From assembly GCA_902762855.1 (NCBI GenBank), contig CACWPR010000001.1, positions 7,656 through 71,655 of the forward strand: a DNA stretch of 64,000 nucleotides. The letters are read 5' to 3'. This document shows positions 35,638 to 51,940 of this stretch, piece after piece; the stretch's first letter is position 1; each line of letters starts with the position of its first letter. Below the pieces are notes generated by a model. The model was not told the DNA's origin. It searched no databases and saw only the letters and a list, made by a program, of their open reading frames with translations. Position numbers and translations under genes: made by a program. The stretch comes from Ruminococcus flavefaciens. GTDB lineage: Bacteria > Bacillota > Clostridia > Oscillospirales > Ruminococcaceae.

Positions 35638-35666
35638 ATTATAACACAACTGTTTAAGATTGTCAA
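35638..35666 (-). promoter_or_regulatory. Leftward sigma-A promoter pointing toward the tRNA
   Basis: TTGACA-17-TATAAT on - strand; 24 bp identical to the TA promoter at 51266-51289. Confidence 0.65.
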
Positions 35667-38214: not shown

Positions 38215-38472
38215 TTATTCCTTTTCTGAGCTTTCGGCAGCTGTTTCGGGATGCTCCATTTCGTATATCAGGTTGTAGACTGCCTCAGTAAATAATGCAT
38301 TAAGCGAAGTGTTATGTTCAGCAGCAAACTCCTGAAGCTTTGCTTTCTCTCCCTTCGGAACTCGCACCTTGATCTCGTCATAAGCCTTAGCATTATAACG
38401 CATAGTCGCTTCTTTCTGAGCTTGTGTGTACTTCCCTCTTATGTAACGAGGTTCTTTCTTTTCTTCTTCCAT
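38215..38472 (-). CDS. Ribbon-helix-helix (Arc/CopG-like) DNA-binding protein
   Basis: YDEIKVRVPKGEKAKLQEFAAEHNTSLNALFTEAV strand-helix-helix pattern. Confidence 0.7.
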   Translation of the reverse strand: MEEEKKEPRYIRGKYTQAQKEATMRYNAKAYDEIKVRVPKGEKAKLQEFAAEHNTSLNALFTEAVYNLIYEMEHPETAAESSEKE

Positions 38473-38508: not shown

Positions 38509-38625
38509 GTATAACACATATTGCATACTGTGTCCAGTATTCATATTGCACAAATTTTTAATGAAAAATTGTACTCGAATTTTTGAAAAAACCGTATTGA
38601 CATACTGTACACAGTATGATATAAT
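38509..38625. promoter_or_regulatory. Divergent promoter pair, each with an ATACTG-N4-CAGTAT operator
   Basis: + TTGACA-17-TATAAT (38597-38625); - TGGACA-17-TATACT; operators at 38525-38540 and 38602-38617. Confidence 0.75.
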
Positions 38626-38645
38626 GATTATGCAATAAAGAATAA

Positions 38646-38666
38646 AGTGTGTCACGGTGACACACT
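38646..38666. repeat. Palindrome copy 1 (centre G)
   Basis: 20 nt downstream of the -10 box, directly before RBS. Confidence 0.97.
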
Positions 38667-38682
38667 CAGGGAGGAAAAGATT

Positions 38683-38955
38683 ATGAACGCAGTACGCAGA
38701 AGAACAATAACCAAGCTCATCGGCAGACTGAACGGACTTCTTGGACAAATGGAAGATCTTCTCGGAGATATTGATATTGTCAGAGAGGAAGAAAACGAAG
38801 CACTCAATAATATGCCAGAGAGCTTAATGGAAACCGACAGATATGCTCAGATTGAGGCTGCTGCGGACAATCTTGAAGAAGCCTATGACACATTCAGCGA
38901 AATGAAAGACAGCCTTGAGGACGTTGTAAACAGCCTTGAAGCTGCACAGGAGTAA
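38683..38955 (+). CDS. Hypothetical acidic coiled-coil protein (90 aa)
   Basis: GGGAGG RBS, ATG 38683; lies between copies 1 and 2. Confidence 0.8.
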   Translation: MNAVRRRTITKLIGRLNGLLGQMEDLLGDIDIVREEENEALNNMPESLMETDRYAQIEAAADNLEEAYDTFSEMKDSLEDVVNSLEAAQE

Positions 38956-38956
38956 G

Positions 38957-38977
38957 AGTGTGTCACCGTGACACACT
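38957..38977. repeat. Palindrome copy 2 (centre C)
   Basis: 1 nt after TAA, before AGGAGG. Confidence 0.97.
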
Positions 38978-38993
38978 TTCAGGAGGTAAAGCA

Positions 38994-39254
38994 ATGGAAG
39001 GAAGATTTATTAAGCCTGTTATCGGAGAAATCTACGAGAATAACGGCGGTGGTACTTATAAGTGCATCGGCTATGAGCCTGATACCGGAGAGCCAATAAT
39101 GGAGAATATCAATACAAGTTGGACTCTTGTTGCACACGCTGTGAAGCAATATACGGACGGAAAGATCGACTGGGGACATTCAACCGGTGGTTATTTCAAG
39201 CAAGATCCGTATCAGAGAAAATATATAATCAGGAAAAAGAGTGTGTCACCGTGA
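38994..39254 (+). CDS. Hypothetical protein (86 aa) ending inside copy 3
   Basis: AGGAGG RBS; C-terminal SVSP* is encoded by the palindrome. Confidence 0.75.
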   Translation: MEGRFIKPVIGEIYENNGGGTYKCIGYEPDTGEPIMENINTSWTLVAHAVKQYTDGKIDWGHSTGGYFKQDPYQRKYIIRKKSVSP

Positions 39255-39260
39255 CACACT
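39240..39260. repeat. Palindrome copy 3 (centre C)
   Basis: Supplies TGA stop of the upstream gene; followed by GGGAGG. Confidence 0.97.
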
Positions 39261-39290
39261 CAGGGAGGAAAGAATAATGGAGGACGAATA

Positions 39291-39494
39291 ATGTCTGAGC
39301 TGAAAACAAAACTTAAGGAATACCGTGCAAAGCACGATATGAAGCAGAGCGAACTTGCAGAACGTGTCGGTGTCCACAGAGAAACTATAACCCGGCTTGA
39401 AAAAGGACAGTATGCCCCCTCGCTTAAACTTGCAATGGATATTGCCGGAGTTTTCGGGGTTGCTGTTGAAGAACTTTTCTCTTTTGAGGACTGA
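39291..39494 (+). CDS. Xre/Cro-family HTH protein (67 aa)
   Basis: [32 protein letters not shown]. Confidence 0.88.
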
Positions 39495-39526
39495 TACAAG
39501 TAAAATGTACAAATATCAAGAAAAAG

Positions 39527-39547
39527 AGTGTGTCATCGTGACACACT
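39527..39547. repeat. Palindrome copy 4 (variant ...TCAT-C-GTGA...)
   Basis: One substitution; followed by AAAGGA RBS. Confidence 0.93.
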
Positions 39548-39565
39548 CGGAAAGGAAAAGAAGAA

Positions 39566-39901
39566 ATGAATTTACTCAAATGCCCGGAATGTGGCGGTGA
39601 GCTGATAGTGAATATGAGATTTACTACGCAGTTCGGTAAAAAGCTCATCCTTACTGATAAAGGTTGGGAGGAAGTTACCGGAAATGTTATGGATGAGCCT
39701 CCAACAGAGCCGGTACGCAGCCTCGGAGCTGTAACTTGCAGCAAATGCGGTCTTGAATGGCGTAGACCTCTATATGAGATAGGCACAGACAATGAAGGTA
39801 CTACGATGTTCATTCAGCTATCCCGTGATGAGGTTAAAATGAATGCTGCGGACAGAGTAAGATACTTTGCAGACAAAGGAATCAAGGTCATTTACAGATA
39901 A
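39566..39901 (+). CDS. Zinc-ribbon hypothetical protein
   Basis: CPECG...CSKCG. Confidence 0.7.
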   Translation: MNLLKCPECGGELIVNMRFTTQFGKKLILTDKGWEEVTGNVMDEPPTEPVRSLGAVTCSKCGLEWRRPLYEIGTDNEGTTMFIQLSRDEVKMNAADRVRYFADKGIKVIYR

Positions 39902-39963
39902 GGAAATCGAACGCAAGTTCATATAAAATCAATAGCAATAAAGTGCGAAAAGGAGTAGTTATT

Positions 39964-40398
39964 ATGTTGAATTCAGTTACAATTATGGGCAGACTTACAG
40001 CTGATCCGGTATTACAGCAGACCACAAACGGTGTTCCGTACTGCAAGTTCATTCTTGCAAACGAGAGCGAATACTATCAGGAGGGCAAAGAAAGACCGGT
40101 CAACTTCGTGATTATGAACGCTTGGAGAAGCACAGCAGAGTTTATCTGCCGTAACTTCGTAAAGGGCAAGCTGATGATCGTTGAAGGTTCGCTCAGAGTT
40201 GCATCATACGTTAAGAATGACGAGAGAAGATTTATATCCAATGTTGAGGTCGGCAGAGCTTACTTTGCCGGGGACAAAAAGGCAGCTGCTCCTGACAATT
40301 CTGCTATCGAGGAAGAGCAGACCTTGAACAAGGCTATCGAGGAATTCAGCCTTGAAGAATATGAGGAAATCCTCTCAGGCGAGGATCTTCCGTTCTGA
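39964..40398 (+). CDS. ssb: Single-stranded DNA-binding protein
   Basis: MLNSVTIMGRLTADP OB fold; acidic tail EDLPF; AAGGAG RBS. Confidence 0.93.
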   Translation: MLNSVTIMGRLTADPVLQQTTNGVPYCKFILANESEYYQEGKERPVNFVIMNAWRSTAEFICRNFVKGKLMIVEGSLRVASYVKNDERRFISNVEVGRAYFAGDKKAAAPDNSAIEEEQTLNKAIEEFSLEEYEEILSGEDLPF

Positions 40399-40418
40399 GT
40401 GTGTCACCGTGACACACT
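40398..40418. repeat. Palindrome copy 5 (centre C)
   Basis: First base overlaps the ssb TGA. Confidence 0.97.
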
Positions 40419-40440
40419 TGATACCGAAAGGAGAACTACT

Positions 40441-40608
40441 ATGAATATGTGGTTAGAAGGAAACAGACGCTACTGTGACCGTCAGACAGCAATTGAGCTT
40501 GGCGGTGAAGAATATCGTAATACAGAGATACACACTATACTCTATTTCGATGAATATATCACAATCGTTGATGAAGTGTGTCACGGTGACACACCTGAGA
40601 ATGAATAA
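40441..40608 (+). CDS. Small hypothetical protein (55 aa) reading through copy 6
   Basis: AAGGAG RBS, ATG 40441. Confidence 0.5.
   Translation: MNMWLEGNRRYCDRQTAIELGGEEYRNTEIHTILYFDEYITIVDEVCHGDTPENE
40575..40595. repeat. Palindrome copy 6 (centre G, last base C)
   Basis: One substitution; about 30 nt upstream of the parA start. Confidence 0.93.
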
Positions 40609-40624
40609 GGGAGGAACAATAAAA

Positions 40625-41416
40625 ATGGCAATTAAAACAAAAATCATCTCAATATGCTCTGAAAAGGGCGGTGTAGGCAAGACAACAACCACAATAAACC
40701 TTGCCGGAGGACTTGCAAAGAGAGGTAAGGAAGTGCTTATCCTCGACCTCGATCAGCAGCAGAACGCTTCACACGCTCTTGGATACGTCAAGGACGGACG
40801 TCCGACTACAGCGGAGCTGATCTATAACACAGTGGCAGGAATCCCGATAGACTATGCAGAGGCTATCAGGACTTGCGGAAATGGTGTTGACTACATTCCT
40901 TCATCGCCTATGCTTACAAACATAACCGGCACGATAGCAAACGACACAGAGAACGACAGTAATTTTGTTCTCAGGAGACTCCTTTTTAATGAAGTCTTTG
41001 CCGAATACGACTACATACTTCTTGACTGCCGGACGATACTCGACCTCCTGATAAGCAATGCCCTTAACGCAAGCGACTACGTTATCATCCCGGTTGACCT
41101 CGGTATATACGCATACAACGGACTTGATAAAATGCTTGATAAGGTTGCCTCGATAAACAATACAACAAACCGCAGCCTGAGAGTATTGGGAGTACTGCTT
41201 AACAAGTTGCAGCTTACCAATGTCAAGACATCTCTTGCAGAATCTATCCGCAGCGAGTATAGTGAGCTTACATTCAAGGCAAGTATTCCATACTGCCCGG
41301 CTCAGACAGAGCTTGCAGTTCTGAATCAGACAAGCTCCGTATTTGATGAACGCAGTTCCCTCGGTACTGCATTTATGAACCTGACAGATGAGGTCATAAG
41401 CATTGTGGAGGAATAA
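40625..41416 (+). CDS. parA: ParA/Soj family ATPase
   Basis: Deviant Walker A KGGVGKTTT, LDLDQQ, YDYILLDC; GGGAGG RBS before ATG 40625. Confidence 0.92.
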   Translation: MAIKTKIISICSEKGGVGKTTTTINLAGGLAKRGKEVLILDLDQQQNASHALGYVKDGRPTTAELIYNTVAGIPIDYAEAIRTCGNGVDYIPSSPMLTNITGTIANDTENDSNFVLRRLLFNEVFAEYDYILLDCRTILDLLISNALNASDYVIIPVDLGIYAYNGLDKMLDKVASINNTTNRSLRVLGVLLNKLQLTNVKTSLAESIRSEYSELTFKASIPYCPAQTELAVLNQTSSVFDERSSLGTAFMNLTDEVISIVEE

Positions 41417-41437
41417 AATGTGTCACCGTGACACACT
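41417..41437. repeat. Palindrome copy 7 (variant AATGTG..., centre C)
   Basis: Directly after the parA TAA. Confidence 0.93.
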
Positions 41438-41455
41438 TAGAAAGGAAATGATGTA

Positions 41456-42109
41456 ATGTACAAGTTAAGTGAACAGCCAGTATCCAGAATATTCGATGAA
41501 ATGGTAAATTTCAGTCCACTATATCATAGAGTAGCTGTTTGTAAGGTGAAAGAACCTTTTTCTATATACGATATTAACTATGAGGAAGGCGATCTGGTAG
41601 CTTTAACTGGTGATACGGAATCTAAAATTGAAATTGAGTACTACCAGAATTTGAAGAAAAGACATTCATATAATATTCATTATGGAGTATCCGGAGATAG
41701 ATTGAGCATAACTGTTGATGATTTCAAAAAACGCTTTGAGCTATGTGAGGAAGAAACTATTAAAGTCGAAAATGTAATTAAACAAGCAAAGGACATTGAT
41801 TACGAAAAGTATTGCGAGATAGAAAACAAACGTGCTGAACCTCTTGATGATTATGGCTTTGCAACAATAGCAGTGATAGCGATAATAGCAGGACCTTTGA
41901 CATTTTGGTGGTTGTTATTTAAACCCGGTACAAAAGAATTCATCTTAACACTACTAATATTTCTTGCTATAATCTCAGTTTTCTTCTTGTTTAATTTTAT
42001 AAAAGATATGAAGCAGCGAGTAATAGAAAGAAAATACCTTGATAAATACAATGAAATGGACAAGCAAAGAGAACAGAGTGGAATGTATATTCCTGAAAGT
42101 GAGGAATAA
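41456..42109 (+). CDS. Hypothetical two-TM protein
   Basis: 217-aa ORF between copies 7 and 8. Confidence 0.7.
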   Translation: MYKLSEQPVSRIFDEMVNFSPLYHRVAVCKVKEPFSIYDINYEEGDLVALTGDTESKIEIEYYQNLKKRHSYNIHYGVSGDRLSITVDDFKKRFELCEEETIKVENVIKQAKDIDYEKYCEIENKRAEPLDDYGFATIAVIAIIAGPLTFWWLLFKPGTKEFILTLLIFLAIISVFFLFNFIKDMKQRVIERKYLDKYNEMDKQREQSGMYIPESEE

Positions 42110-42130
42110 AGTGTGTCACCGTGACACACT
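42110..42130. repeat. Palindrome copy 8 (centre C)
   Basis: Directly after TAA 42107-42109. Confidence 0.97.
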
Positions 42131-42134
42131 TGCA

Positions 42135-42205
42135 AAAGAAAACAGAGCAGACCGTCCAACACGCTAAAGGACACGTTCTGCTCTGCCACCAGACGAAAGT
42201 CTGAT
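42135..42205 (-). ncRNA. Candidate small antisense RNA
   Basis: - strand TTGACG-17-TATAAT (42212-42240), then CAGAGCAGA...TCTGCTCTG hairpin with U-tract ending just before copy 8. Confidence 0.5.
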
Positions 42206-42257
42206 ATAATCATTATATCTTACTCACAGGCTTTCGTCAAGTATCTGGAGGAAGAAA

Positions 42258-42698
42258 ATGGTATTTGTAAAAGTATTATATGCAGTTGCAATGATAATCT
42301 TCACTTACCGTCTACTGAATCGCAAGCGATGTACTGATCCCGAAGGAAATATAGAATTTATTTCAGTTTCTGAGGCAATTGAGGAAATGAACCGGACTAA
42401 GGAACAGCTTTCTTCAATTGAAGAAATGATAACCGACATAACGATTTGTTCCCCGGACGATCATAACAAGTACATCAGATGTGAGTGGGCAAACACTTTA
42501 GGTGAGTGTTTCAAGTATGATCTCTTCATTGACGGTAATGGAACAGTGTCAGATGAACTGCTCAGAATTGCTTATGCAGAGAGGTCAAGACTGCGTACCC
42601 TACTCCGTCAGCAGATCAGAAATCTTAATGACCGGTGTAACGAAAACTGTAACGAAAACTATGCGTTTTCATCGGGGGAGGGGTTAGATGATAAGTGA
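42258..42698 (+). CDS. Hypothetical protein
   Basis: GGAGG RBS; 146 aa. Confidence 0.65.
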   Translation: MVFVKVLYAVAMIIFTYRLLNRKRCTDPEGNIEFISVSEAIEEMNRTKEQLSSIEEMITDITICSPDDHNKYIRCEWANTLGECFKYDLFIDGNGTVSDELLRIAYAERSRLRTLLRQQIRNLNDRCNENCNENYAFSSGEGLDDK

Positions 42699-42996
42699 TA
42701 TTAAGTATTGTAAACGCTGCGGAGCAATGATCTCAGACATTAACAATACAGACTGGTACAGGCATATGAGCGTGAAATACTGTGAGATATGCCGCAAGGA
42801 ATCTGACCGGGAGAAAACAGCACTCCGGGTATATAATCTACGTCAGCGAAAGAAAGCAAAAGATAAACTCCGGGATGAGAAACTTGTCCTTATGGAGGAA
42901 AGGAATGAGCTGCTTGCAGAGGAGAACGTACTGCTCCGTCAGAGGTTAGTGCAGCTCCGGGAAAAGGTTCTTAGTAATGAGAGTGTGTCACGGTGA
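42688..42996 (+). CDS. CxxC/CxxC zinc-finger plus coiled-coil protein ending inside copy 9
   Basis: CKRC...CEIC; C-terminal SVSR* from the palindrome. Confidence 0.7.
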   Translation: MISDIKYCKRCGAMISDINNTDWYRHMSVKYCEICRKESDREKTALRVYNLRQRKKAKDKLRDEKLVLMEERNELLAEENVLLRQRLVQLREKVLSNESVSR

Positions 42997-43002
42997 CACA
43001 CT
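42982..43002. repeat. Palindrome copy 9 (centre G)
   Basis: Supplies TGA; followed by GGGAGG. Confidence 0.97.
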
Positions 43003-43018
43003 CAGGGAGGAAAGAATA

Positions 43019-43486
43019 ATGGATAATAATAAATGCGTACACGATGAATTAGCCAACGAAGGACTTGTGAACAAGCTCAGAAAGTTCAAGGAATATCTTC
43101 TTAACGATGATGTTCCAGAGTGGCAGCAGCTCATAGCAACTGCCGGATTTGTAATGGACGTTGTAAATGAGCTTAAATGGAAAGAACACACTGAATATCA
43201 CGGCACAAGCGAAAGGTGTGTTATGGAGGCTGATGATGTTTTCGATGAGATAATGGCAGCGGTCAACTATGAGCTTGAAAAGCCGTACTATAAAAAGCTC
43301 GATAGTATGTGGGATGATTGGAACAACAACAAAACAGGCAAATATGCAAAAATCAATACTATGCAGGAAATGCTTGATATTATCTGTGACTGCCTTGAAA
43401 TCGAATATCCCGGTCTTATAGAACTTGAAAAGAAATATTTCGGACTTAGTCTGAAAAGCGATGAAAACGAGGATGAATCACAATGA
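43019..43486 (+). CDS. Hypothetical protein (155 aa)
   Basis: GGGAGG RBS, ATG 43019. Confidence 0.7.
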   Translation: MDNNKCVHDELANEGLVNKLRKFKEYLLNDDVPEWQQLIATAGFVMDVVNELKWKEHTEYHGTSERCVMEADDVFDEIMAAVNYELEKPYYKKLDSMWDDWNNNKTGKYAKINTMQEMLDIICDCLEIEYPGLIELEKKYFGLSLKSDENEDESQ

Positions 43487-43743
43487 TATTCAAAGACTTA
43501 AAAGCGTGTCCGTTCTGCGGTTGTGAAGAATACTATGAAAGAAGTCGTATCAAAGGGTATGTTTTCTATCGTACTCGTTTTGATGGAGAAGAAACTGATA
43601 ATACCAATATGTACGATGCAACAACAACTATATCTAATGGGAAAGTTTATTGTTGCAACTGTGAACGTTACCTTGGCAACTTTATAACTGATACACTTGG
43701 CAAGAGTGCTGAGAAACAATTAATCAAGATGAAGGAGGAATGA
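43483..43743 (+). CDS. Zinc-ribbon hypothetical protein
   Basis: CPFCG...CCNC; ATGA overlap with the upstream gene. Confidence 0.65.
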   Translation: MIFKDLKACPFCGCEEYYERSRIKGYVFYRTRFDGEETDNTNMYDATTTISNGKVYCCNCERYLGNFITDTLGKSAEKQLIKMKEE

Positions 43744-43746
43744 CGT

Positions 43747-43986
43747 ATGACGAGATTTCCGGGACATTATAAAATAGACTGGATTTCAATAAAAGAACAG
43801 CAGCCTAAAGAAACAGGATACTATTTCTGTTGCCATAGTAACAAATTACCCAGTGGCAGCAGATACAGTATTGAGTTGTGGATAGCAAGCGGAAACGACT
43901 GGATACAGGGCACTCGCAATCGTGACAGTATTGAATACTGGGCATATCTTCCGGACTTGCCGGAGGGATTCAACGAAGAATGGTAA
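43747..43986 (+). CDS. DUF551-like phage-type small protein
   Basis: WISIKEQQP...YWAYLPDLP pattern. Confidence 0.6.
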   Translation: MTRFPGHYKIDWISIKEQQPKETGYYFCCHSNKLPSGSRYSIELWIASGNDWIQGTRNRDSIEYWAYLPDLPEGFNEEW

Positions 43987-43988
43987 TA

Positions 43989-44009
43989 AGTGTGTCACCG
44001 TGACACACT
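43989..44009. repeat. Palindrome copy 10 (centre C)
   Basis: Between TAATAA and the AGGAGG RBS of parB. Confidence 0.97.
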
Positions 44010-44021
44010 CAGGAGGAGAGT

Positions 44022-44960
44022 ATGGCAAAGATTGATTTTACAGCAATGAAAAACAGCCGTAAAGCTGCCGAAGATCAGATCGAGGATAATATCCCGGCAG
44101 AGCTTGAAGAAAGCTATACAAGCGTATGGGGCAGCAATAAAGAGAACATCATCTACATAGATACAACTCGTCTTATTCCTTTTGTAGACAAATACGGCAA
44201 TTCGCAGCCATTCAAGCTGAATGAAAAGAAAGTCAGCCAGATAGATGCAAGTGCAAAGGATATTGGCATAGTCACTCCGCTGACAGTCAGAGCTAAAGGA
44301 GATCTCTATGAGATAATCGCCGGACATCACAGACTTGCAGCTGCACAGCAGATAGGTCAGCTCAAAGTTCCTTGTATAGTCCGCAAGTACACAGACGAAG
44401 AAATGTACACAGTACTTGCTGAGAGTAACATCCAGAGGGACAGGACGCTGCCGAGCGAATACGGCAGAATCTTCGCCCGGTATATGGAAATCAGGGAGAG
44501 CGAGGACTTGACAGCTGAGGAAATAGCTGCGAAGTTCGATATATCAAAGAAAACGATGTACAGATATATCAATGTCAATTCTCTTATCTCTGAGCTTCAG
44601 GATATGACTGACAACAAGATCATAAATATCGGTGCCGTTGATACTATATCGCAGCTTTCTGAGGACGAGCAGACAGCTCTTGCAGCTGTTCTTGATGAAG
44701 AAAAGGTCATATTCTCAGTTGCAATGGCAAAGCAGCTCAGAACACTCTCAGATAACGCTGAGGGCGAACTAACAGAAGAAGATATAAGAACACTATTTGA
44801 GCATAAAAAAGCTGCACATAAGTCTGTGCAGCGATCAATAAGCGATTCTGTTGTGAATCGATACTTTATGCCCGATGCTTCTGACAAGGAAGTAGAGGAC
44901 ACCATAGCTAAAGCTCTTGAACTGTATTTCAATCAGTCTCACCGGAACGCAGACAATTGA
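44022..44960 (+). CDS. parB: ParB/Spo0J family protein
   Basis: PLTVR, YEIIAGHHRLAAA (GxxR box), ESNIQR, HTH TAEEIAAKFDISKKTMYRYI. Confidence 0.9.
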   Translation: MAKIDFTAMKNSRKAAEDQIEDNIPAELEESYTSVWGSNKENIIYIDTTRLIPFVDKYGNSQPFKLNEKKVSQIDASAKDIGIVTPLTVRAKGDLYEIIAGHHRLAAAQQIGQLKVPCIVRKYTDEEMYTVLAESNIQRDRTLPSEYGRIFARYMEIRESEDLTAEEIAAKFDISKKTMYRYINVNSLISELQDMTDNKIINIGAVDTISQLSEDEQTALAAVLDEEKVIFSVAMAKQLRTLSDNAEGELTEEDIRTLFEHKKAAHKSVQRSISDSVVNRYFMPDASDKEVEDTIAKALELYFNQSHRNADN

Positions 44961-45234
44961 TAAGCTCAATAACTGCTGCGACCTGCCTGTCACTCAGACC
45001 TTTGATTGATACCGTTGATGTTTCCTCGATACCAAGAAGGTAATCAGTTGAGACATTGAATTGCTTAGCCAAAGTTACGATATACTGCACTTGCGGAACG
45101 GATAGTCCCATTTCCCAGGCGTTCACACCTGAGCGTGAGATACCTAACCCTCTTGCAAGTGCAGCCTGTGTCAGACCGGATTTTTCACGCAGCATCCTGA
45201 TTTTGTCACCTAATGAGAATAATTCTTTTTCCAT
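44929..45234 (-). CDS. Xre-family HTH repressor
   Basis: LTQAALARGLGISRSGVNAWEMG...FNVSTDYLLG; GAGGTG RBS before ATG 45234. Confidence 0.88.
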   Translation of the reverse strand: MEKELFSLGDKIRMLREKSGLTQAALARGLGISRSGVNAWEMGLSVPQVQYIVTLAKQFNVSTDYLLGIEETSTVSIKGLSDRQVAAVIELINCLRSGETD

Positions 45235-45384
45235 AAACCATTCACCTCTACATATTATAATATAGTATGGCACTATGATTTTGCATTATCATAATGATAA
45301 TATTACTTGACATATTATTATAATTATTATATAATAATGAGGTCAAATATAAACATCTCGGTATAAGAAAGGTTGGATGTAATT

Positions 45385-46443
45385 ATGAATATCAGACACT
45401 TATCAGCACTTATAACAGCCATTGCCTTATCCGCCTCCTTTACGAGCTGCGGTGATAAGGATGATAGAAGCAGCTCAAAATCAAATGTTGTCGAGGCTAA
45501 GAATATCGAACCAAGCACGGTTGAAACAAGCAAAGACATTGAATCCACAACAGTAGACGATGTGATCCAGAAAGCTCTTGAGGAACAGGCAAACCGGGAA
45601 CACGACGGATATTACCTTATTGACTATGTTACTGTGAATTTCAAAGGATATGAACACGATTCAGAAGTTGAGGCAGTTGTCGATTGGGAGAGGCTTGCAA
45701 CCGATCTTGGCAATGATATAACTCCTGATTTTCTGGAACAGGTTTATCATATAAGTGTCCTGAATACAAAAGAAAATTCACTCGATCACGCCAAAGTTGA
45801 TGATCTTATCAATGGCGAGGAAGTTAATATTCATCTAAGCGAAAGGTCATTGCAGTCCTCATTCAAACAAAAGTACAGCAAAGAGCTTCAATTCTTAGAC
45901 GAGAACATCTGGGGTGATAATGACAATTATGCTGTTGTATCCGGACTTAAAACAAAAGTATTCCTTGAAAATGCAGCTGACGTTGACCCAAAGGCTGTAA
46001 ATGAGCTCTTTGAAGAAACAATGAGTACTATCAAGGAGTCTACTCAAAACTATACTGATACATTGCTTAATAATGGAAGTTCAGTAGATATAGATTTTGT
46101 TCTCGGCAGGAACAGCAAAATAACTGATGAAACCAGAAAGTGTAAAATCAATGATTATAAGGTCGAAAAAACATATTTGGCTACCAGAACAGCAGCAAGC
46201 TATAATGATGTAGCTGCAAGCGGTCTGCCGGGTAATATGATATTTAATATATACAAGCTGACAGCAGAACGCTATGGCAGCGGTGAGATATTTGAAATGT
46301 ACTATCGCACCGAGGTCGGAAATGTTTTATTTGAGGACGATAAAATGCTCATTGGCGATGAAGAAGTTAAAGTACAGTTTGCCGGATCAGCTGATGAACT
46401 TATGCCTGATAACAAGTACTGGGAAATTTCAGAAGTAAAGTAA
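45385..46443 (+). CDS. Lipoprotein of unknown function
   Basis: Lipobox-like FTSC; own TTGACA-17-TATAAT promoter at 45307-45335. Confidence 0.75.
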   Translation: MNIRHLSALITAIALSASFTSCGDKDDRSSSKSNVVEAKNIEPSTVETSKDIESTTVDDVIQKALEEQANREHDGYYLIDYVTVNFKGYEHDSEVEAVVDWERLATDLGNDITPDFLEQVYHISVLNTKENSLDHAKVDDLINGEEVNIHLSERSLQSSFKQKYSKELQFLDENIWGDNDNYAVVSGLKTKVFLENAADVDPKAVNELFEETMSTIKESTQNYTDTLLNNGSSVDIDFVLGRNSKITDETRKCKINDYKVEKTYLATRTAASYNDVAASGLPGNMIFNIYKLTAERYGSGEIFEMYYRTEVGNVLFEDDKMLIGDEEVKVQFAGSADELMPDNKYWEISEVK

Positions 46444-46463
46444 GTGTGTCACCGTGACACACT
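46443..46463. repeat. Palindrome copy 11 (centre C)
   Basis: Overlaps TAA; followed by AGGAGG. Confidence 0.97.
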
Positions 46464-46479
46464 CAGGAGGGAGTATATT

Positions 46480-46833
46480 ATGGCAGTTGTATTATTACCA
46501 TTCAAATTAATAGCGACAGTATTACTGTATATACTGAAAATCGTATTCAAGACGATTTCATTTATCGTGTTTGGCTGTTCTCTGCCATTTGTACTGCTTT
46601 CTGATATAATAGGTACAATTCTCGGACTGATCTCAGCCGTTGGTCTTGCAGGAATGTTTATATGTTGGCGGTTTGGAGATCTTGACGGAAAAACAGTCCT
46701 AATATGTGCCTTTACTTTTGGCATACTGAGTGCATTGTTTTTGGCAGCAGAAGATATAGCTGCTGCAATTGAAGAAAAGCTATCAGATGCCTCTGATTTC
46801 TTTGGCTATCTGATAGCTGATATGTGGACATAA
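46480..46833 (+). CDS. Small multi-TM membrane protein
   Basis: AGGAGG RBS, ATG 46480; hydrophobic. Confidence 0.7.
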   Translation: MAVVLLPFKLIATVLLYILKIVFKTISFIVFGCSLPFVLLSDIIGTILGLISAVGLAGMFICWRFGDLDGKTVLICAFTFGILSALFLAAEDIAAAIEEKLSDASDFFGYLIADMWT

Positions 46834-46894
46834 GAAAAAGCAGACCGTTATGGTCTGCTTTTCCCTTTGAAGTAGGTGGATTATGGCAACACTG

Positions 46895-47650
46895 TTAGTG
46901 TGTTATATCATCTTTGCTCTTATCATTATGCTGTTGCATAGGTTTTTCCGCAGCTTTTTCAGCAAAGGCTTTTTGTGTGGCTCTGGAGAAACTAAACTTG
47001 TAATTATTTATGAGTAAATTACTTTGTTGTTTTAATTCAGCAGAAAGTTTGGAAAAAACCGATTGTGGAATATCAGATAAGCTCTTTCCTTTTTCGATAT
47101 ATAAAACATCAGTATATATCGGTATGTCATTAGCTCTTGCCAGAATATGGGTTATAGAATAAACATTTGCACTCCTATCAAAGCAATCCTCATCTCTTAA
47201 GGATTCGACAGTAAAATATGCATCTGATTTTATGCCAGTTGGATTTTGTTTATTAAAGCAAAGAGTGAAATTCAAATCAGTTGAGCCGAATTTGTATGTT
47301 TGAGTTGATGTTGTTATGTCTTCAAGTAAGAAAGATTCTGAGGTGGCAAGATTAGAAATATTATTTATATGTTGGATTTTTCTTTTTGATAATTGAAACG
47401 GATGCTGAGCTGAAAAGAAAATCTGAGTTCCTTGCAGCTTACCATCAACGGCGAGTTTGTAGAAGCTCTTGGCAGACAGGTTACTTTCTACACCTGTTAA
47501 ATGTTTGAAGTTGGAGGTTTTGAACATTACCTCTATGTATCTGCCATCAAAGACATAGAGGAAGGTTTTTCCAACAAGTTTTTTCTTATATTGCTTGGCT
47601 GCAATGCAGATTTGTTTTGCAGCTTGCTTTCTGTCATTTAATTTACTCAT
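46895..47650 (-). CDS. PBECR4-like (BECR-fold) predicted ribonuclease
   Basis: YKKKLVGKTFLYV...IEVMFKTSNFKHLTG...FYKLA pattern recalled for PBECR4; charged C-terminal tail. Confidence 0.7.
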   Translation of the reverse strand: MSKLNDRKQAAKQICIAAKQYKKKLVGKTFLYVFDGRYIEVMFKTSNFKHLTGVESNLSAKSFYKLAVDGKLQGTQIFFSAQHPFQLSKRKIQHINNISNLATSESFLLEDITTSTQTYKFGSTDLNFTLCFNKQNPTGIKSDAYFTVESLRDEDCFDRSANVYSITHILARANDIPIYTDVLYIEKGKSLSDIPQSVFSKLSAELKQQSNLLINNYKFSFSRATQKAFAEKAAEKPMQQHNDKSKDDITH

Positions 47651-47661
47651 TTTATCATCCT

Positions 47662-47909
47662 AAAAAAATACCGGAAAACATAATAAGTAATCCGGTATTT
47701 TATATAATCATTTATAGGCGGTTTTCTGCTGGCTGTCAGCCGCAATACCCTTACGAGTATCAATAGTCAAAGGTATTTAAAGTCCCCTGAGCAGACTAAC
47801 TTTTCTCCCAAGTCAAGGCTTGATATTCACCTGAATATCTAAGAGTCTTAGCATTTAACCTGCCTAAGCACAGTACAGCTTATTGTGCCGCCACACAGAG
47901 ATTTCTCTC
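47662..47909 (-). ncRNA. Candidate structured ncRNA with intrinsic terminator upstream of the nuclease
   Basis: TTGACT-17-TATAAT (47916-47944, -); several hairpins closed by GGCGG/CCGCC; terminator stem 47666-47700 plus U-tract. Confidence 0.6.
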
Positions 47910-47994
47910 AATATTATTATACCCTTTGCTATGATAAAAGTCAATATGCTTAGAAAATATTTTTCTTTTACCTATTAAACAAGATAATCTGACA

Positions 47995-48015
47995 AGTGTG
48001 TCACCGTGACACACT
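47995..48015. repeat. Palindrome copy 12 (centre C on +)
   Basis: Overlaps the TAA of the - strand gene at 48015-48017. Confidence 0.97.
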
Positions 48016-48455
48016 TAATAATAATTTTTCGTAGCTTGTCTAATCATAAGGAAGGTATCCTTATTTTCAGGCTTAATATTCAGTCCGTCAAAGCTCTCAT
48101 TATGTGAATAGTAGTAATTACTTAAAGCCTCAGTCAAAGCCATTTCATCGGTGTTTTCAAAGTCACTAAGCATATCATTTATAGTCTGCTCAAATGTTGT
48201 ACAACATACGTTATCAGAGATAAAATAATCAATATCATCATAAGAATCAACAATGTTATAATTGATGTTATTATATGAGCCCTTTTGTATAGAGTAAACA
48301 TCTATTATTGCTTCATCAAAGAAACCAGAAAACATTTCAAGGTATTCCAAAGCAGAAACACCACAAAGAATTACATCATTTGTCATAACATTTTGCAGCC
48401 ATAGACGAGTTGAGATAAAATCCTTACGAGTTTTCGTCATCATATTATACTTCAT
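48015..48455 (-). CDS. Hypothetical protein, AbiEi-antitoxin-like (tentative)
   Basis: ILCGVSALEYL...TTFEQTINDML pattern; family call from recollection only. Confidence 0.5.
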   Translation of the reverse strand: MKYNMMTKTRKDFISTRLWLQNVMTNDVILCGVSALEYLEMFSGFFDEAIIDVYSIQKGSYNNINYNIVDSYDDIDYFISDNVCCTTFEQTINDMLSDFENTDEMALTEALSNYYYSHNESFDGLNIKPENKDTFLMIRQATKNYY

Positions 48456-48506
48456 CCTCTCTTTAAAGAGTTGTAAAATCTGCTATATCCACTTGAAAAG
48501 AAAACA

Positions 48507-48887
48507 TCATACAACGTCCCTCACCTCATTCTCTACGATATTGAATCTCTTAAATTCAGGAATTGAATTGTCATAGTATTCCTGAAGGAGATTAGGATTA
48601 TTAGTAATACTTGAATCAAGCAATGCACTTGTAGGGTACAGGACTTTTTCAAGTCTAAATGTTCTTAGATTGTCGTAGTCTGTACAGAGCGGAACATTAT
48701 TAATCCTACTGAGATAGTCGATCATTGCAAGGAGATATAAACTTTCAGCATACCATTTTTTATCGAAGTATTCATTTATAATATTTGACTTCAATATCTC
48801 GATAATAAACGATATATCGCCAATATCTTTAACTCTGTGGCATACGTTGCTTTTGAAAGTATCAAATGAACATCTGATGTCGCTCAT
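48507..48887 (-). CDS. Hypothetical protein
   Basis: GGAGG RBS; - strand TTGACT-17-TATAAT promoter upstream. Confidence 0.7.
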   Translation of the reverse strand: MSDIRCSFDTFKSNVCHRVKDIGDISFIIEILKSNIINEYFDKKWYAESLYLLAMIDYLSRINNVPLCTDYDNLRTFRLEKVLYPTSALLDSSITNNPNLLQEYYDNSIPEFKRFNIVENEVRDVV

Positions 48888-49091
48888 ACCACAATCCTCC
48901 TTTGCGTTTCGTTACTTATATTATATATTACATCCTCTCAATAGTCAACTCTAAAGCTGAATTTCCGTTCATAAAGGCGTACTAAAACAACTGAACGTCC
49001 GCAAACTAAAACAAGGCTTTTACGAACGCAAAAACCGCCCATTTCTGAGCGGTTTGAAAGCGTTCAAAAAGGTATACCTTTGCGAACGCTT

Positions 49092-49117
49092 AAAAGCTCC
49101 ATAAGAATGGAGCTTTT
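49092..49117. terminator. Bidirectional terminator
   Basis: AAAAGCTCC-ATAAGAAT-GGAGCTTTT. Confidence 0.75.
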
Positions 49118-49121
49118 ATGA

Positions 49122-49214
49122 TTATTTTATTATTCTCTTTATCTTGCAATCAATTGTAGCTAACGTTATTCCGCCAGCTACGCCGACAAGAATGCAAGCG
49201 ATTGTTGTGATCAT
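49122..49214 (-). CDS. 30-aa hydrophobic peptide, type I toxin-like (not in ORF track)
   Basis: MITTIACILVGVAGGITLATIDCKIKRIIK*; GGGAGG RBS; TTGACA-17-TATAAT at 49270-49298; terminator directly after stop. Confidence 0.7.
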   Translation of the reverse strand: MITTIACILVGVAGGITLATIDCKIKRIIK

Positions 49215-49440
49215 AGAAAGCCCCTCCCTTCTTTATATATTTTTTGTTACGTCTATATATTGTAATGCTATTATATCATAAAACAAACTAATTGTCAATA
49301 CTCAACAACAAAAAAGCTGGATTTTTCGTTTTTTCTGTATAATACTATACAAAACTTGACAAAAACAAATATAGCTGTAGTCTTTAATAGTACTTTTAAT
49401 AAACAAAAACCTGTGAGAAGATTCTTCACAGGTTTTTTAT

Positions 49441-49668
49441 TTAGATATTCAGGAACTTTTCGATAACGACCATTATTTCTTCCAGTCGTTTGTCACCGAT
49501 GCCTTTGATCTTGCTCAGCTCTGCTTGAAGTGCCGGGAGATCTATCGTTTTATCCTCGATGCCCATAAGCTCATCGCCGTATCGAAGGATGAACTTTGTA
49601 AGCTCCTCACGGTTCATCTTCTTAATCTTCTTATAGGTATCTCGATCAATTACTTCATTTTTGTCCAC
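49441..49668 (-). CDS. Small protein with C-terminal helix-hairpin-helix motif
   Basis: LSKIKGIGDKRLEEI; start overlaps stop of the upstream gene. Confidence 0.65.
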   Translation of the reverse strand: MDKNEVIDRDTYKKIKKMNREELTKFILRYGDELMGIEDKTIDLPALQAELSKIKGIGDKRLEEIMVVIEKFLNI

Positions 49669-50405
49669 TATTTGCTATCTCCTTTATCCTTATCATTTCT
49701 ATTTATCCATTTGATATATGGCGTTTTGTCAACTCCGTATATCGACAATACTTCAACAACATTCATATAACTTACTCTTCCTAAATTTCTAATGTCCATA
49801 AGTTCCTTTGGATCGAGAACAGCTACGTCACGGAGTGTGCTTAAGCCATACCTATGCAAACAATTGTATGCACGAATCGGCATAGATAGATCTTCCAATA
49901 GTATATGAGGAAGCTCGTTTATATCTTTAAGTTCCGCACCTTCTTGTCTCAATGAGAAGCTTTTTTCTTTTTCAAGTGAATTGTGACCGTCTTTGAATCC
50001 ATCATTATACCCATTCATATATCCTTCATCAAATCCTTGCTTTTTTCCTTGATCCGTGAGCATTTTCTCATAAGATTTGAAACCGAGAGTGGTTATATAT
50101 ACGAAAGGACTGGTATCAAGTTTAGATAAAAGCCGTTCTTTAAGGTTCTTGAAACTATTTACTGTTAAATTGAATCTTTTGCAAATCGCATTAATCGAAA
50201 CATTATCACGATAATAAAGGTGAAAGACCTCTGCTTCATAGTCGGAGAATAAAACAGAGATGAAGTATTCAAATAAGTGTAGTACGTCTGCTCTGCCATA
50301 GTAAACAGTAATGTCACGATCTAACTTAGCTACCCTACGACTGTTATCAACCCAATCTATAAAGGCATTAATAGGATATGATTTTCTTATCTCGGAAGTT
50401 GTCAT
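49668..50405 (-). CDS. Sigma-region-4-like HTH fused to RNA polymerase alpha-CTD-like domain
   Basis: FSDYEAEVFHLYY..SINAICKRFNLT (sigma4-like); LEDLSMPIRAYNCL...ELMDIRNLGRVS (alpha-CTD-like). Confidence 0.72.
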   Translation of the reverse strand: MTTSEIRKSYPINAFIDWVDNSRRVAKLDRDITVYYGRADVLHLFEYFISVLFSDYEAEVFHLYYRDNVSINAICKRFNLTVNSFKNLKERLLSKLDTSPFVYITTLGFKSYEKMLTDQGKKQGFDEGYMNGYNDGFKDGHNSLEKEKSFSLRQEGAELKDINELPHILLEDLSMPIRAYNCLHRYGLSTLRDVAVLDPKELMDIRNLGRVSYMNVVEVLSIYGVDKTPYIKWINRNDKDKGDSK

Positions 50406-50501
50406 ATATCATCACAGCTTTCTCTGTTTTCTATTAACTTAATGCGTAAAATATAACATTATAGTAAGTATAACATAGATGTTTATATTTTGCAATAAAA
50501 A

Positions 50502-50522
50502 AGTGTGTCACGGTGACACACT
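50502..50522. repeat. Palindrome copy 13 (centre G on +)
   Basis: 10 nt after the HEPN stop; 6 nt upstream of a - strand -35 box (50490-50495). Confidence 0.97.
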
Positions 50523-50532
50523 CTTTTATATA

Positions 50533-50940
50533 TTAGTTAATCTCATCGATTTCAGCAAGTTTAGCCTGTAATGTGCATTCAAGACTTATAAATGTGGGAA
50601 TAAAGCTGTCTTTTATGAGTAGCAGCATCTCGTCTATTTCATCCTCACTATAAATGTGGACAGAAGTATTTCTTTTTTTCAGCATAACGAGCCATACCTC
50701 TGCATTAGCTATAAATCCGCATTTATAGCCGAGTTGAAGGATTTCACGAGGAGAGCCTGTTTCTGCATTTTCTACACCGTGAAGCCTCAGAACAGCCTGT
50801 AAAGCCTTCCAAGCAAGTTCAAATGTTAAATTGAATTGACCGATAACACCGGTTCGGTAGATCTCATTCTGGTCAGCCATTTCAAAATCTGCGTTTTTGA
50901 GTATCTTCAAGCAGTTAGAAAAATTTTCAACTTTTTTCAT
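50533..50940 (-). CDS. HEPN toxin (HI0074-like nucleotidyltransferase substrate-binding family)
   Basis: GQFNLTFELAWK, SPREILQLG, Rx4H motif RNTSVH; start may be 50940 or 50970. Confidence 0.88.
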   Translation of the reverse strand: MKKVENFSNCLKILKNADFEMADQNEIYRTGVIGQFNLTFELAWKALQAVLRLHGVENAETGSPREILQLGYKCGFIANAEVWLVMLKKRNTSVHIYSEDEIDEMLLLIKDSFIPTFISLECTLQAKLAEIDEIN

Positions 50941-51217
50941 ATAGCAATATACCGTCCCTCTCAATTTCATCTTGTAGCTCTTGACTTATACCTTTATCGA
51001 GATCAACAACATCAAACATCAGGAGAGTGTGAGAATTATCTTTTATATCGTAGTAAAAATCAAGATAATTACCACCGCTTACAGCAATATCAATGTCACT
51101 TCTCTCAGAATTCGTTTTTCTCGCACGGGAGCCGAAAAGGATAACTTTTTGTATGCCGTGCTTTTCAGAGAATTTAATTATATCTCTGACCACTCTTTCA
51201 GGAAGATCATAATCCAT
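50927..51217 (-). CDS. Minimal nucleotidyltransferase (MNT) antitoxin
   Basis: LFGSRARKTNSERSDIDIAV (GSx10DxD); promoter TTGCAA-17-TATAAT at 51266-51294. Confidence 0.9.
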   Translation of the reverse strand: MDYDLPERVVRDIIKFSEKHGIQKVILFGSRARKTNSERSDIDIAVSGGNYLDFYYDIKDNSHTLLMFDVVDLDKGISQELQDEIERDGILLYEKS

Positions 51218-51310
51218 ATATAACACCTACTCCCAATAGTATTACACCCACACTAAACTGTAATAATTATAACACAACTGTTTAAGATTTGCAATAGAAA
51301 ATCGAGATAT

Positions 51311-51331
51311 AGTGTGTCACGGTGACACACT
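51311..51331. repeat. Palindrome copy 14 (centre G on +)
   Basis: Supplies the TGA stop of the resolvase gene; last copy seen. Confidence 0.97.
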
Positions 51332-51940
51332 TTTCTCATACTGCTTAACAAGGTTATAAAACGTAGTCTTTTTCAGTCCTAAAAGCTCCATAGCCTGAAC
51401 TGCTGTTATTGAGCCTGACTTCCATTCATTATAGGTATTCTGCCAGTTTTCAGGAAAATCCGCTTTAGGTCTGCCAAGATACTTACCCGAAGCCTTTGCT
51501 GCTTCAATGCCTTGTCGCTGCCTGTTTTTGATGTTCTCACGCTCTTTTTCGGCAGTATAGCTCAAAATCTGGAGAACGAGGTCAACAATAAAGTGCTTGT
51601 CAAGACTATCGCTGCTCTTGCTTGTATCGAGCAAAGGCATATCGAGAACTTTAATATCAGCTTCAAGATTATATGTTATATGCTGCCATTGATCCCTTAT
51701 TTCCTTATAATTTCTGCCGAGCCTGTCCAGAGAAGTGATTATAAGCATATCTCCTGAGTGCAGCATAGGAGCAGTCTCAGCTGTCCCTACAAGGGTATTA
51801 TAGCCTTTACGATTAAAGTCCTTTCCACTTGCCTTATCAGTGATTATGTACCTATCATCCGAAATATACTCACGCAGCATTCGCAGCTGCCGGTCAAGAT
51901 TCTGGTCGGAACTCGATACTCTTGCATATCCGTATTTCAT
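51317..51940 (-). CDS. Serine recombinase, resolvase/invertase family with C-terminal HTH
   Basis: YGYARVSSSDQNLDRQ, SLDRLGRN, RQRQGIEAAKASGKYLGRP, LGLKKTTFY. Confidence 0.94.
   Translation of the reverse strand: MKYGYARVSSSDQNLDRQLRMLREYISDDRYIITDKASGKDFNRKGYNTLVGTAETAPMLHSGDMLIITSLDRLGRNYKEIRDQWQHITYNLEADIKVLDMPLLDTSKSSDSLDKHFIVDLVLQILSYTAEKERENIKNRQRQGIEAAKASGKYLGRPKADFPENWQNTYNEWKSGSITAVQAMELLGLKKTTFYNLVKQYEKSVSP

Follow-up and report, generated by a model that had tools for sequence, protein, structure and literature searches.

A parS-like palindrome dispersed over the gene junctions of a Ruminococcus conjugative element as a probable docking site of the element's own ParB-family protein

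ParB-family proteins of mobile elements are increasingly seen as more than partition factors: KorB acts in silencing, BisD in activation, and HerB, a ParB-family protein found on a mobile element, reprograms the host. KorB of plasmid RK2 is a ParB-family clamp that represses plasmid operons from dispersed OB sites (TTTAGCGGCTAAA). BisD, a ParB-like clamp of the Pseudomonas integrative and conjugative element (ICE) ICEclc, recognizes odd-length palindromes with a free centre (bisS; GAGCTATCCCCnGGGGATAGCTC) and regulates the element's genes over tens of kilobases. Here we analyzed a 64,000-nt stretch of Ruminococcus flavefaciens DNA (GenBank assembly GCA_902762855.1, contig CACWPR010000001.1, positions 7,656 to 71,655 of the forward strand; hereafter, the window), in which a first-pass annotation had noticed a 21-bp palindrome repeated at gene junctions. 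Judged by its sequence, the DNA that carries the repeats is a conjugative element of gut or rumen Ruminococcus type, integrated beside a tRNA gene. We consider it probable, at roughly 0.68, that the palindrome is a parS-type double-stranded DNA docking site of the element's own ParB-family protein, working with the element's ParA. Taken as a whole, this is most likely a known kind of system, resembling KorB on plasmid RK2, in an unusually dense, gene-by-gene layout.

The window was scanned with the pattern AGTGTGTCAC-S-GTGACACACT, allowing up to three mismatches. The search returned the 14 palindromes of the first-pass annotation at the same coordinates (P1-P14, Table 1), with the same division into 11 exact copies and three with a single mismatch (39527, 40575, and 41417) and the same central bases on the plus strand (nine C, five G). 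No further match was found in the 64 kb, even at three mismatches, and 100 dinucleotide-preserving shuffles gave 0 matches, a chance expectation of none. Using our own, independent gene calls, we arrived at the same counts for the surroundings of the sites: a stop codon is overlapped, supplied, or no more than 2 nt away at 10 of the 14 copies (P2, P3, P5, P7-P12, and P14), and a ribosome binding site (RBS) and ATG follow on the plus strand after 10 (P1-P7 and P9-P11). The palindrome contains TGA in one frame, and accordingly 16 of 51 upstream genes end inside it (in SVSR-stop or SVSP-stop), including many parB genes. In the window, this TGA closes the genes at P3, P9, and P14. A small open reading frame (ORF; 40441-40608) instead reads through P6 as VCHGDT. 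The distance from site to site is 177-2507 bp and the intervals carry whole genes without regular short spacers, in agreement with the earlier statement that this is not a CRISPR (clustered regularly interspaced short palindromic repeats) array. Outside the 21 bp, no conserved sequence was found at the window sites except the downstream RBS. Within them, the inner 17 bp (TGTGTCAC-S-GTGACACA) form the best-kept core, and most of the variation falls in the outer two positions of either arm.

All 18 copies in the 2.7-Mb assembly lie on contig C1, in one low-GC element, and the host chromosome is otherwise without a copy. The earlier observation that positions 1-38645 and the sequence past 51331 hold no palindrome is correct for the window at up to three mismatches, but the array continues to its right, where four more copies (C1 76390, 78038, 78614, and 80999, the last ending at 81019; window coordinates 68735-73364) occur in stop-palindrome-RBS-ATG units serving minus-strand genes. 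The palindrome was present in only three of 301 sampled genomes of the host family; it is therefore carried by the mobile element and is not a genome-wide host repeat, an outcome that the first-pass annotation had named as one that would speak against its reading. The exact 21-mer was found in 43 stretches of species-representative genomes, usually in several copies per contig; these carriers are nearly all metagenome-assembled genomes of Ruminococcus/Oscillospiraceae from ruminant, rabbit, and human guts. It also occurred on five IMG/VR contigs and in at least 120 metagenome stretches.

Comparison with a related element in another genome (G1; contig JAFXEJ010000022.1), collinear over ~43 kb at a DNA identity of 67-91% (mostly 71-78%), showed how closely the sites are maintained. 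At 14 orthologous junctions, the 16 non-central core positions were identical in 224 of 224 comparisons (P ~1e-24 at a 78% background). Decay of the sites in relatives, which had been named as an outcome that would speak against a function, is the opposite of what was seen: the alignment shows strong purifying selection on the site sequence. The centre base, which is almost always C or G, agreed at six of the 14 junctions. The number of sites per element was 18 here, over ~35 kb, 24 in G1, and 12 in a second relative, G2. A metagenome contig (L081; Ga0256406_1007871) carries practically the same element in the opposite orientation, with ParA 99% and ParB 98% identical and with equal site spacing.

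The core of the palindrome closely resembles parS. The host chromosome contains five exact canonical parS sites (TGTTTCACGTGAAACA; half-sites TGTTTCAC and GTGAAACA) in its mnmE-gidA-rsmG-noc-soj-spo0J region (contig C13, 13158-16782), and relative to these the element core differs by T>G once per half-site, so that seven of eight bases match, and by one additional central base pair. Versions of the element half-site with a 0-bp or a 2-bp spacer were not found in this genome. Base for base, this comparison shows that the element sites derive from canonical Firmicute parS. Like the element sites, the first of the host parS sites has a stop codon on one side and the following RBS on the other. 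A small separate contig (C120; 5052 and 5167) bears two copies of GTGTCAC-TCC-GTGACAC, with a 3-bp spacer, in a 115-bp direct repeat, and these may belong to a different element with a related site.

The element encodes both a ParB-family protein and a ParA (Table 1). The 312-aa ParB (ParB312) matched PF02195 and HTH_ParB, aligned over its N-domain and helix-turn-helix (HTH) with the structures of Noc (2e-14) and Spo0J (9e-14), and scored 71.6 on TIGR00180, above the cut-off of 58.45; by these matches it is a true member of the ParB/Noc/Spo0J family. ParA matched the ParA_partition (E 1e-22) and PrgP (2e-19) models, with scores under the curated cut-offs. Among the proteins of the window, it is ParB that has relatives in the largest number of palindrome-selected loci, and when the ORFs of such loci were clustered without bias, ParB was the top family (14 of 28 genomes). 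In 80 metagenome stretches picked by the palindrome alone, ParB occurred in 31 and ParA in 26, and any other window protein in six at most. Conversely, each of 17 loci found via ParB carried the palindrome or a close variant; these loci came from an alignment query, a query with the single ParB protein having returned none. The recognition helix of ParB312, SKKTMYRY, conforms to a pattern (S[KR]KT[MIL]YRY) that is invariant among relatives down to 27-29% overall identity, and around two more distant ParBs with other helices no such palindromes were found within 15 kb. In some relatives (L019:5492-7408, L058:6608-8449, and L006:4996-6933), ParB is fused to an N-terminal domain of ~330 aa with a CxxxCxxC-like motif (CPNHCRWC) and a radical-SAM-like look, and in a further ParB group (L034, L017, and L039; 513 aa) the N-terminal extension is of another kind, rich in Cys.

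The pairing extends to elements with few sites and to a megaplasmid. A widespread clade that includes the isolate Hominimerdicola aceti Sanger_31 (ParA ~35% and ParB ~30% identical to those of the window) has only two to three copies of the identical 21-mer, in a layout (parA, site, parB, ~570 nt, site) that is fixed in at least 22 loci. R. albus 7 has a 420-kb megaplasmid, pRUMAL01 (NC_014824.1), with a classical parA-parB operon, its ParB being 50% identical, and with 46 GTGTCAC-NN-GTGACAC sites in all, whose 2-bp centre varies. Three of these lie directly upstream of parA, the last abutting the RBS as in the window, ~25 are arrayed with a period of 132 bp in 6 kb of gene-free DNA beside the replication initiator gene, and the remainder occupy intergenic gaps. 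The array (L078 28900-34100; 241.9-247.1 kb), located directly upstream of rep and including an eight-site run with spacings of 131-155 bp, mostly 132, is a candidate centromere. The sopC locus of plasmid F is a plasmid centromere array. The half-site GTGTCAC, the ParB clade, and sites directly upstream of parA are thus common to pRUMAL01 and the window element, whereas the plasmid has mostly a tandem array beside rep and the window element has no array but intercistronic sites. These comparisons show that the sites travel with parA-parB across three ParB clades. In R. albus 8 (L065, NZ_ADKM02000021.1; 2474, 7303, 9060, and 9169), a non-palindromic 2-bp centre (GT or AC) flips between copies, a 2-bp analogue of the C/G flip.

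These results suggest how the system might operate. Each ParB monomer would recognize one half-site (TGTGTCAC) with its SKKTMYRY helix, and C and G would be interchangeable at the centre because the dyad passes through the odd central base pair. ParB dimers would load at the 18 sites and, in the manner of other ParB-family systems, spread or slide over the ~35 kb of the element that serve establishment and maintenance, and with ParA the coated sites would act as a dispersed centromere of the excised or replicating element. The sites are most likely dispersed, parS/OB-like ParB loading sites for partition and, by analogy with KorB, ParB at these sites probably exerts autoregulation or silencing as well. 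Because a perfect promoter precedes P1 and 11 sites lie inside the long operon that also encodes ParA and ParB, bound ParB would be expected to throttle its own operon, allowing a burst of expression upon entry into a new cell and a KorB-like shut-off thereafter. Finally, identical 21-bp sites at stops and RBSs would provide exact crossover points at which cassettes (site-RBS-ORF-stop) could be reshuffled between related elements, probably as a by-product and not as the selected function.

The likeness to KorB-OB, which works with IncC/ParA on the IncP-1 plasmid RK2, consists in many identical odd-length palindromes with a central G or C, dispersed over a conjugative replicon, and KorB combines a function in partition with global repression of the operons of its plasmid, the double role that we propose here. 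Outside ParB-family membership, ParB312 is not significantly similar to KorB in sequence; its significant PDB matches, the best of which were Noc and Spo0J, included no KorB chain. Its sites are unrelated to OB in sequence, being derived from Firmicute parS, and number 18-24 per element, mostly between stop and RBS within operons and not near promoters. In the window, P1 (20 nt downstream of a promoter) and P13 (6 nt upstream of a -35 element) lie near promoters, and most sites are in promoter-less intercistronic gaps. RK2 has 12 OB sites, grouped in promoter classes. No KorA- or TrbA-like clamp-locking partner was identified in the element and, unlike the RK2 hosts, its host is a Gram-positive anaerobe. 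The resemblance to KorB is one of proposed operation and not of descent; by descent, the closest system is canonical Firmicute ParB-parS. With canonical ParABS (Spo0J/ParB; parS TGTTNCACGTGAAACA) the element shares the protein family, the ParA partner, and seven of eight half-site bases, but its half-sites are 1 bp further apart (2 bp in the R. albus relatives), its ParB has the helix SKKTMYRY instead of one of Spo0J type and GHHRLA in place of GERRxR, and its sites, rather than clustering near an origin, occupy gene junctions along ~35 kb. BisD has two sites only, an activator domain, and a BisC partner, and switches genes on, as opposed to 18 sites and a ParA in the present element. The first-pass annotation did not recognize the system as one described; this is true of the exact 21-mer, which was not found in the literature searched, but not of its kind, for which KorB-OB on RK2 and BisD-bisS on ICEclc are precedents.

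Several observations weigh against a simple ParB docking site. ParB312 lacks the canonical cytidine triphosphate (CTP) motifs, with GHHRLA for GERRxR and ESNIQR for ENLQR; the GxxR and NxxR residues are retained, but three others (the Glu of GERR, the final Arg, and the Glu of EN) are missing from their positions. Because of these replacements, clamp loading and CTP-gated sliding cannot be assumed for ParB312. The phosphate-binding motif of KorB (GARRYR) is also non-canonical. About half of the palindrome-selected stretches are without ParB, for which their short length may alone account. With the added central base pair, the half-sites are phased differently from those of canonical parS, and one recognition helix would have to serve a 1-bp spacer here and a 2-bp spacer in relatives. 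The sites are also asymmetric in two respects. The 8 nt upstream on the sense strand are A-rich (at least five A) at 37 of 74 oriented sites, compared with 11% of control ORF ends, and the centre is G along transcription at 14 of 15 oriented sites of G1 (L053-L055), compared with 5 G to 8 C in the window. Neither feature is expected of a dimer that binds DNA symmetrically; both may have come from the spread of a module that joins an oriented site to an RBS, or from a secondary role at the RNA level. Examples of A-rich flanks in the window are 38638-38645, 39232-39239, and 39519-39526. Lastly, one site per gene, between stop and RBS, far exceeds what partition needs. Tolerance is part of the answer to this placement, the gap between stop and RBS being the sole free space in a packed operon.

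A tentative extension, which we hold to be possible but doubtful, takes the junction placement as the function itself. According to this proposal, parS has been co-opted into a module for per-gene control and assembly, in which a ParB site before almost every RBS would silence the establishment operon gene by gene after entry, the sites would be universal joints for cassettes (anti-restriction, toxin-antitoxin, etc.) between co-resident elements, and the A-tract side would end antisense transcription. If true, such a module would be a ParB-based counterpart of an integron plus regulon, beyond a dispersed centromere.

The asymmetries also bear on whether the palindrome works as RNA. An intercistronic hairpin with a 9-bp stem and a 3-nt loop could stabilize or process mRNA, couple translation, or terminate antisense transcription; the 21-mer does fold, at -11 kcal/mol, and the order along transcription is always stop-hairpin-RBS, on either strand. 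Because the upstream flank is A-rich on the sense strand, a T-run follows the hairpin on the antisense strand, where it resembles a terminator, but solely for antisense transcripts: a terminator scan flagged four sites on the minus strand (P1, P3, P4, and P11) and two on the plus strand (P13 and P14), whereas a U-tract in the sense direction occurs at five of 74 sites only, so that the palindrome is not an intrinsic sense terminator. The centre base that is polar with transcription in one relative would also suit an RNA. A structure, however, requires pairing and not identity at 224 of 224 positions. The variants at outer positions break pairs without compensation, although a scan for compensatory or G-U-tolerant changes found too little variation, confined to outer or loop positions, to tell a hairpin from a protein site. 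In pRUMAL01, moreover, the same half-sites stand in a 6-kb gene-free array and between convergent genes. At the palindrome sites Rfam gave no match; its only hits were the tRNA and, below threshold, an RsaJ-like match located at a terminator. Nor was any conserved partner found that would bind or cleave RNA; the PBECR4 nuclease is not conserved. We therefore regard a primary role in RNA as unlikely. The first-pass annotation had proposed a dedicated protein-DNA or RNA-processing system; comparative evidence favours the former, pointing to the element's own ParB, and RNA processing is unsupported.

If the palindromes are instead operators or roadblocks of another repressor, along the lines of mycobacteriophage stoperators or the phiC31 conserved inverted repeats (CIRs), the candidates in the element would be a 67-aa XRE protein, a ribbon-helix-helix (RHH) protein, or a zinc-ribbon/coiled-coil protein. 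The locations are suggestive, in that the XRE-family HTH gene (39291-39494) lies between P3 and P4 and an RHH-like gene (38215-38472, minus strand) is transcribed divergently with respect to the P1 promoter. Each candidate binder was nevertheless rejected on its distribution. The XRE protein (XRE67) has no homologue in the collinear relatives G1-G3, which keep the exact site; of 12 genomes that carry the site or its ParB, four have hyp102 and seven have RHH85, and both proteins are missing from pRUMAL01. The Rep protein of that megaplasmid was likewise rejected, having no homologue in palindrome loci. No candidate approaches the co-occurrence seen for ParB and ParA, which makes another repressor distinctly improbable.

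The repeating unit (site-RBS-ORF-stop-site), and the resolvase gene whose end lies in P14, would also fit crossover sites of dedicated site-specific recombination, in an integron-like array that the adjacent resolvase, or some other recombinase, would operate. Homology between elements does break exactly at the palindrome, with one flank joined to varied partners: HTH82-P-h168 and h83-P-h133 in the window (P, palindrome) correspond to HTH82-P-h133-P-h168 and h83-P-other in G1, and 29 of 49 flank families, each present at two or more sites, are joined via the palindrome to at least two unrelated partners. Breaks in synteny are about as common without the palindrome, however (~10 of 24 junctions without it vs. 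10 of 18 with it, by a rough manual count), and no recombinase is conserved along with the sites. The resolvase is 92% identical in one fragment, 31% identical and located elsewhere in G1, and absent from most loci, and no integron-type (IntI) integrase was found. The sites themselves are perfect, fixed 21-bp palindromes with a single central base, unlike attC or the 2-bp-core sites of serine recombinases. Integron attC sites are imperfect, of variable length (~57-141 bp), and contain extrahelical bases. Moreover, elements with two to three sites place them around parAB. A dedicated recombination system is thus very unlikely and, because no recombinase is conserved and breaks are about equally frequent elsewhere, we read the mosaic joints as homologous or illegitimate exchange at a short identical sequence. 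Short conserved intergenic sequences at the joints of cassette exchange are known from the PeSL promoter/stem-loop modules of T4-type phages and from the boundary sequences of mosaic phages. The phage sequences act as promoters or regulatory RNAs, whereas the present palindrome is best explained as a protein docking site at which recombination is a side effect.

That the palindrome is a selfish or neutral repeat spread within the element without a function, resembling a miniature inverted-repeat transposable element (MITE) or a repetitive extragenic palindrome (REP), has almost no probability left: many near-identical copies exist and template switching can keep palindromes perfect, but target-site duplications are absent, conservation of the flanks stops at the RBS, elements of 65-78% DNA identity and three ParB clades share the identical sequence, and the host chromosome has no copy.

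The proposed ParB docking sites belong to an element with the following layout. GC content drops from ~0.50 to ~0.40 at ~35 kb, just past a tRNA-Met gene, after which the left genes encode NikA/MobC and then a MobA/VirD2-type relaxase. The long plus-strand operon of small genes has an XRE regulator, SSB, ParA, a Lar-like protein, and a ParB-family protein among its products, and minus-strand genes encode a PBECR4 nuclease, an alpha-CTD-like protein, a HEPN-like nucleotidyltransferase (NTase)-binding protein, and a 207-aa serine resolvase. Topoisomerase III and a TraG/VirB4-type ATPase are encoded outside the window, in the same element. No integrase was found, nor was a second attachment site or repeat of the tRNA-Met 3' end found in the assembly, and the contig terminates within the element. 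The label "ICE accessory region" used by the first-pass annotation is thus reasonable, although the integrase and the second end of the element were not seen.

Table 1. Palindrome copies, par genes, and the operon promoter in the window (window coordinates)
Feature	Position	Strand	Sequence or product	Context
Promoter	38597..38625	+	TTGACA-17-TG-TATAAT; sigma-70-type, 12/12 consensus with extended -10	Heads the long plus-strand operon; P1 lies 20 nt downstream
P1	38646..38666		Exact, centre G	5' leader of plus-strand operon; RBS and ATG at 38683
P2	38957..38977		Exact, centre C	Stop TAA 1 nt upstream; RBS and ATG at 38994
P3	39240..39260		Exact, centre C	Internal TGA closes gene 38994-39254 (SVSP-stop); then RBS and ATG of XRE gene
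P4	39527..39547		One mismatch (C10>T), centre C	RBS and ATG at 39566
P5	40398..40418		Exact, centre C	First A finishes the TGA stop of ssb
P6	40575..40595		One mismatch (last T>C), centre G	Within small ORF 40441-40608; 29 nt before parA ATG
parA	40625..41416	+	263 aa, Walker-type ParA/Soj ATPase; AAA_31/CbiA/ParA	Flanked by P6 and P7
P7	41417..41437		One mismatch (G2>A), centre C	Directly abuts TAA stop of parA
P8	42110..42130		Exact, centre C	Directly abuts TAA stop; following gene begins 128 nt on
P9	42982..43002		Exact, centre G	Internal TGA closes gene 42688-42996 (SVSR-stop)
P10	43989..44009		Exact, centre C	12 nt before parB ATG
parB	44022..44960	+	312 aa, ParB/Noc/Spo0J family; N-domain and HTH	Proposed palindrome binder
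P11	46443..46463		Exact, centre C	First A finishes TAA stop; RBS and ATG at 46480
P12	47995..48015		Exact, centre C	1-nt overlap with stop of minus-strand gene 48015-48455
P13	50502..50522		Exact, centre G	10 nt past stop of minus-strand HEPN-like gene; 6 nt upstream of -35 of minus-strand promoter TTGCAA-17-TATACT
P14	51311..51331		Exact, centre G	Internal TGA (minus strand) closes resolvase gene 51317-51940; minus-strand promoter TTGCAA-17-TATAAT 17 nt beyond

Further features of the right part of the window deserve mention. P13 and P14 exactly bracket the gene for the HEPN-like NTase-substrate-binding protein (50533-50970, minus strand), a small upstream ORF, and their own promoter (unit 50533-51226), which together are likely an MNT-HEPN toxin-antitoxin cassette. 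A 24-nt identical stretch (attataacacaactgtttaagatt) is common to two leftward consensus-type promoters, both on the minus strand, one at the left end of the element (35638-35666) and one beside P14 (51266-51294). Further right, a 3761-aa polyvalent protein (52617-63902, minus strand) combines DUF6908, YodL, an Eco57I-type methylase, and an SNF2 helicase, without a palindrome inside its gene; its relatives (41-97% identity) accompany the palindrome in eight genomes.

The ParB clade described here is widespread in elements of human-gut and rumen Ruminococcus/Oscillospiraceae (at least 120 metagenome stretches) and forms a natural series, from two to three sites around parAB, through 18-24 sites at nearly all junctions, to the centromere array of a megaplasmid. 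The half-sites are spaced by 1 or 2 bp with the same helix, vs. 0 bp in canonical parS. Cultured carriers exist in H. aceti Sanger_31, with the exact 21-mer, and in R. albus 7 and 8, with the 2-bp-spacer variant. The series thereby opens to test the evolution of ParB specificity and spacing, the silencing of an operon from inside by clamps, and the use of docking sites as joints of cassette turnover in gut mobile elements.

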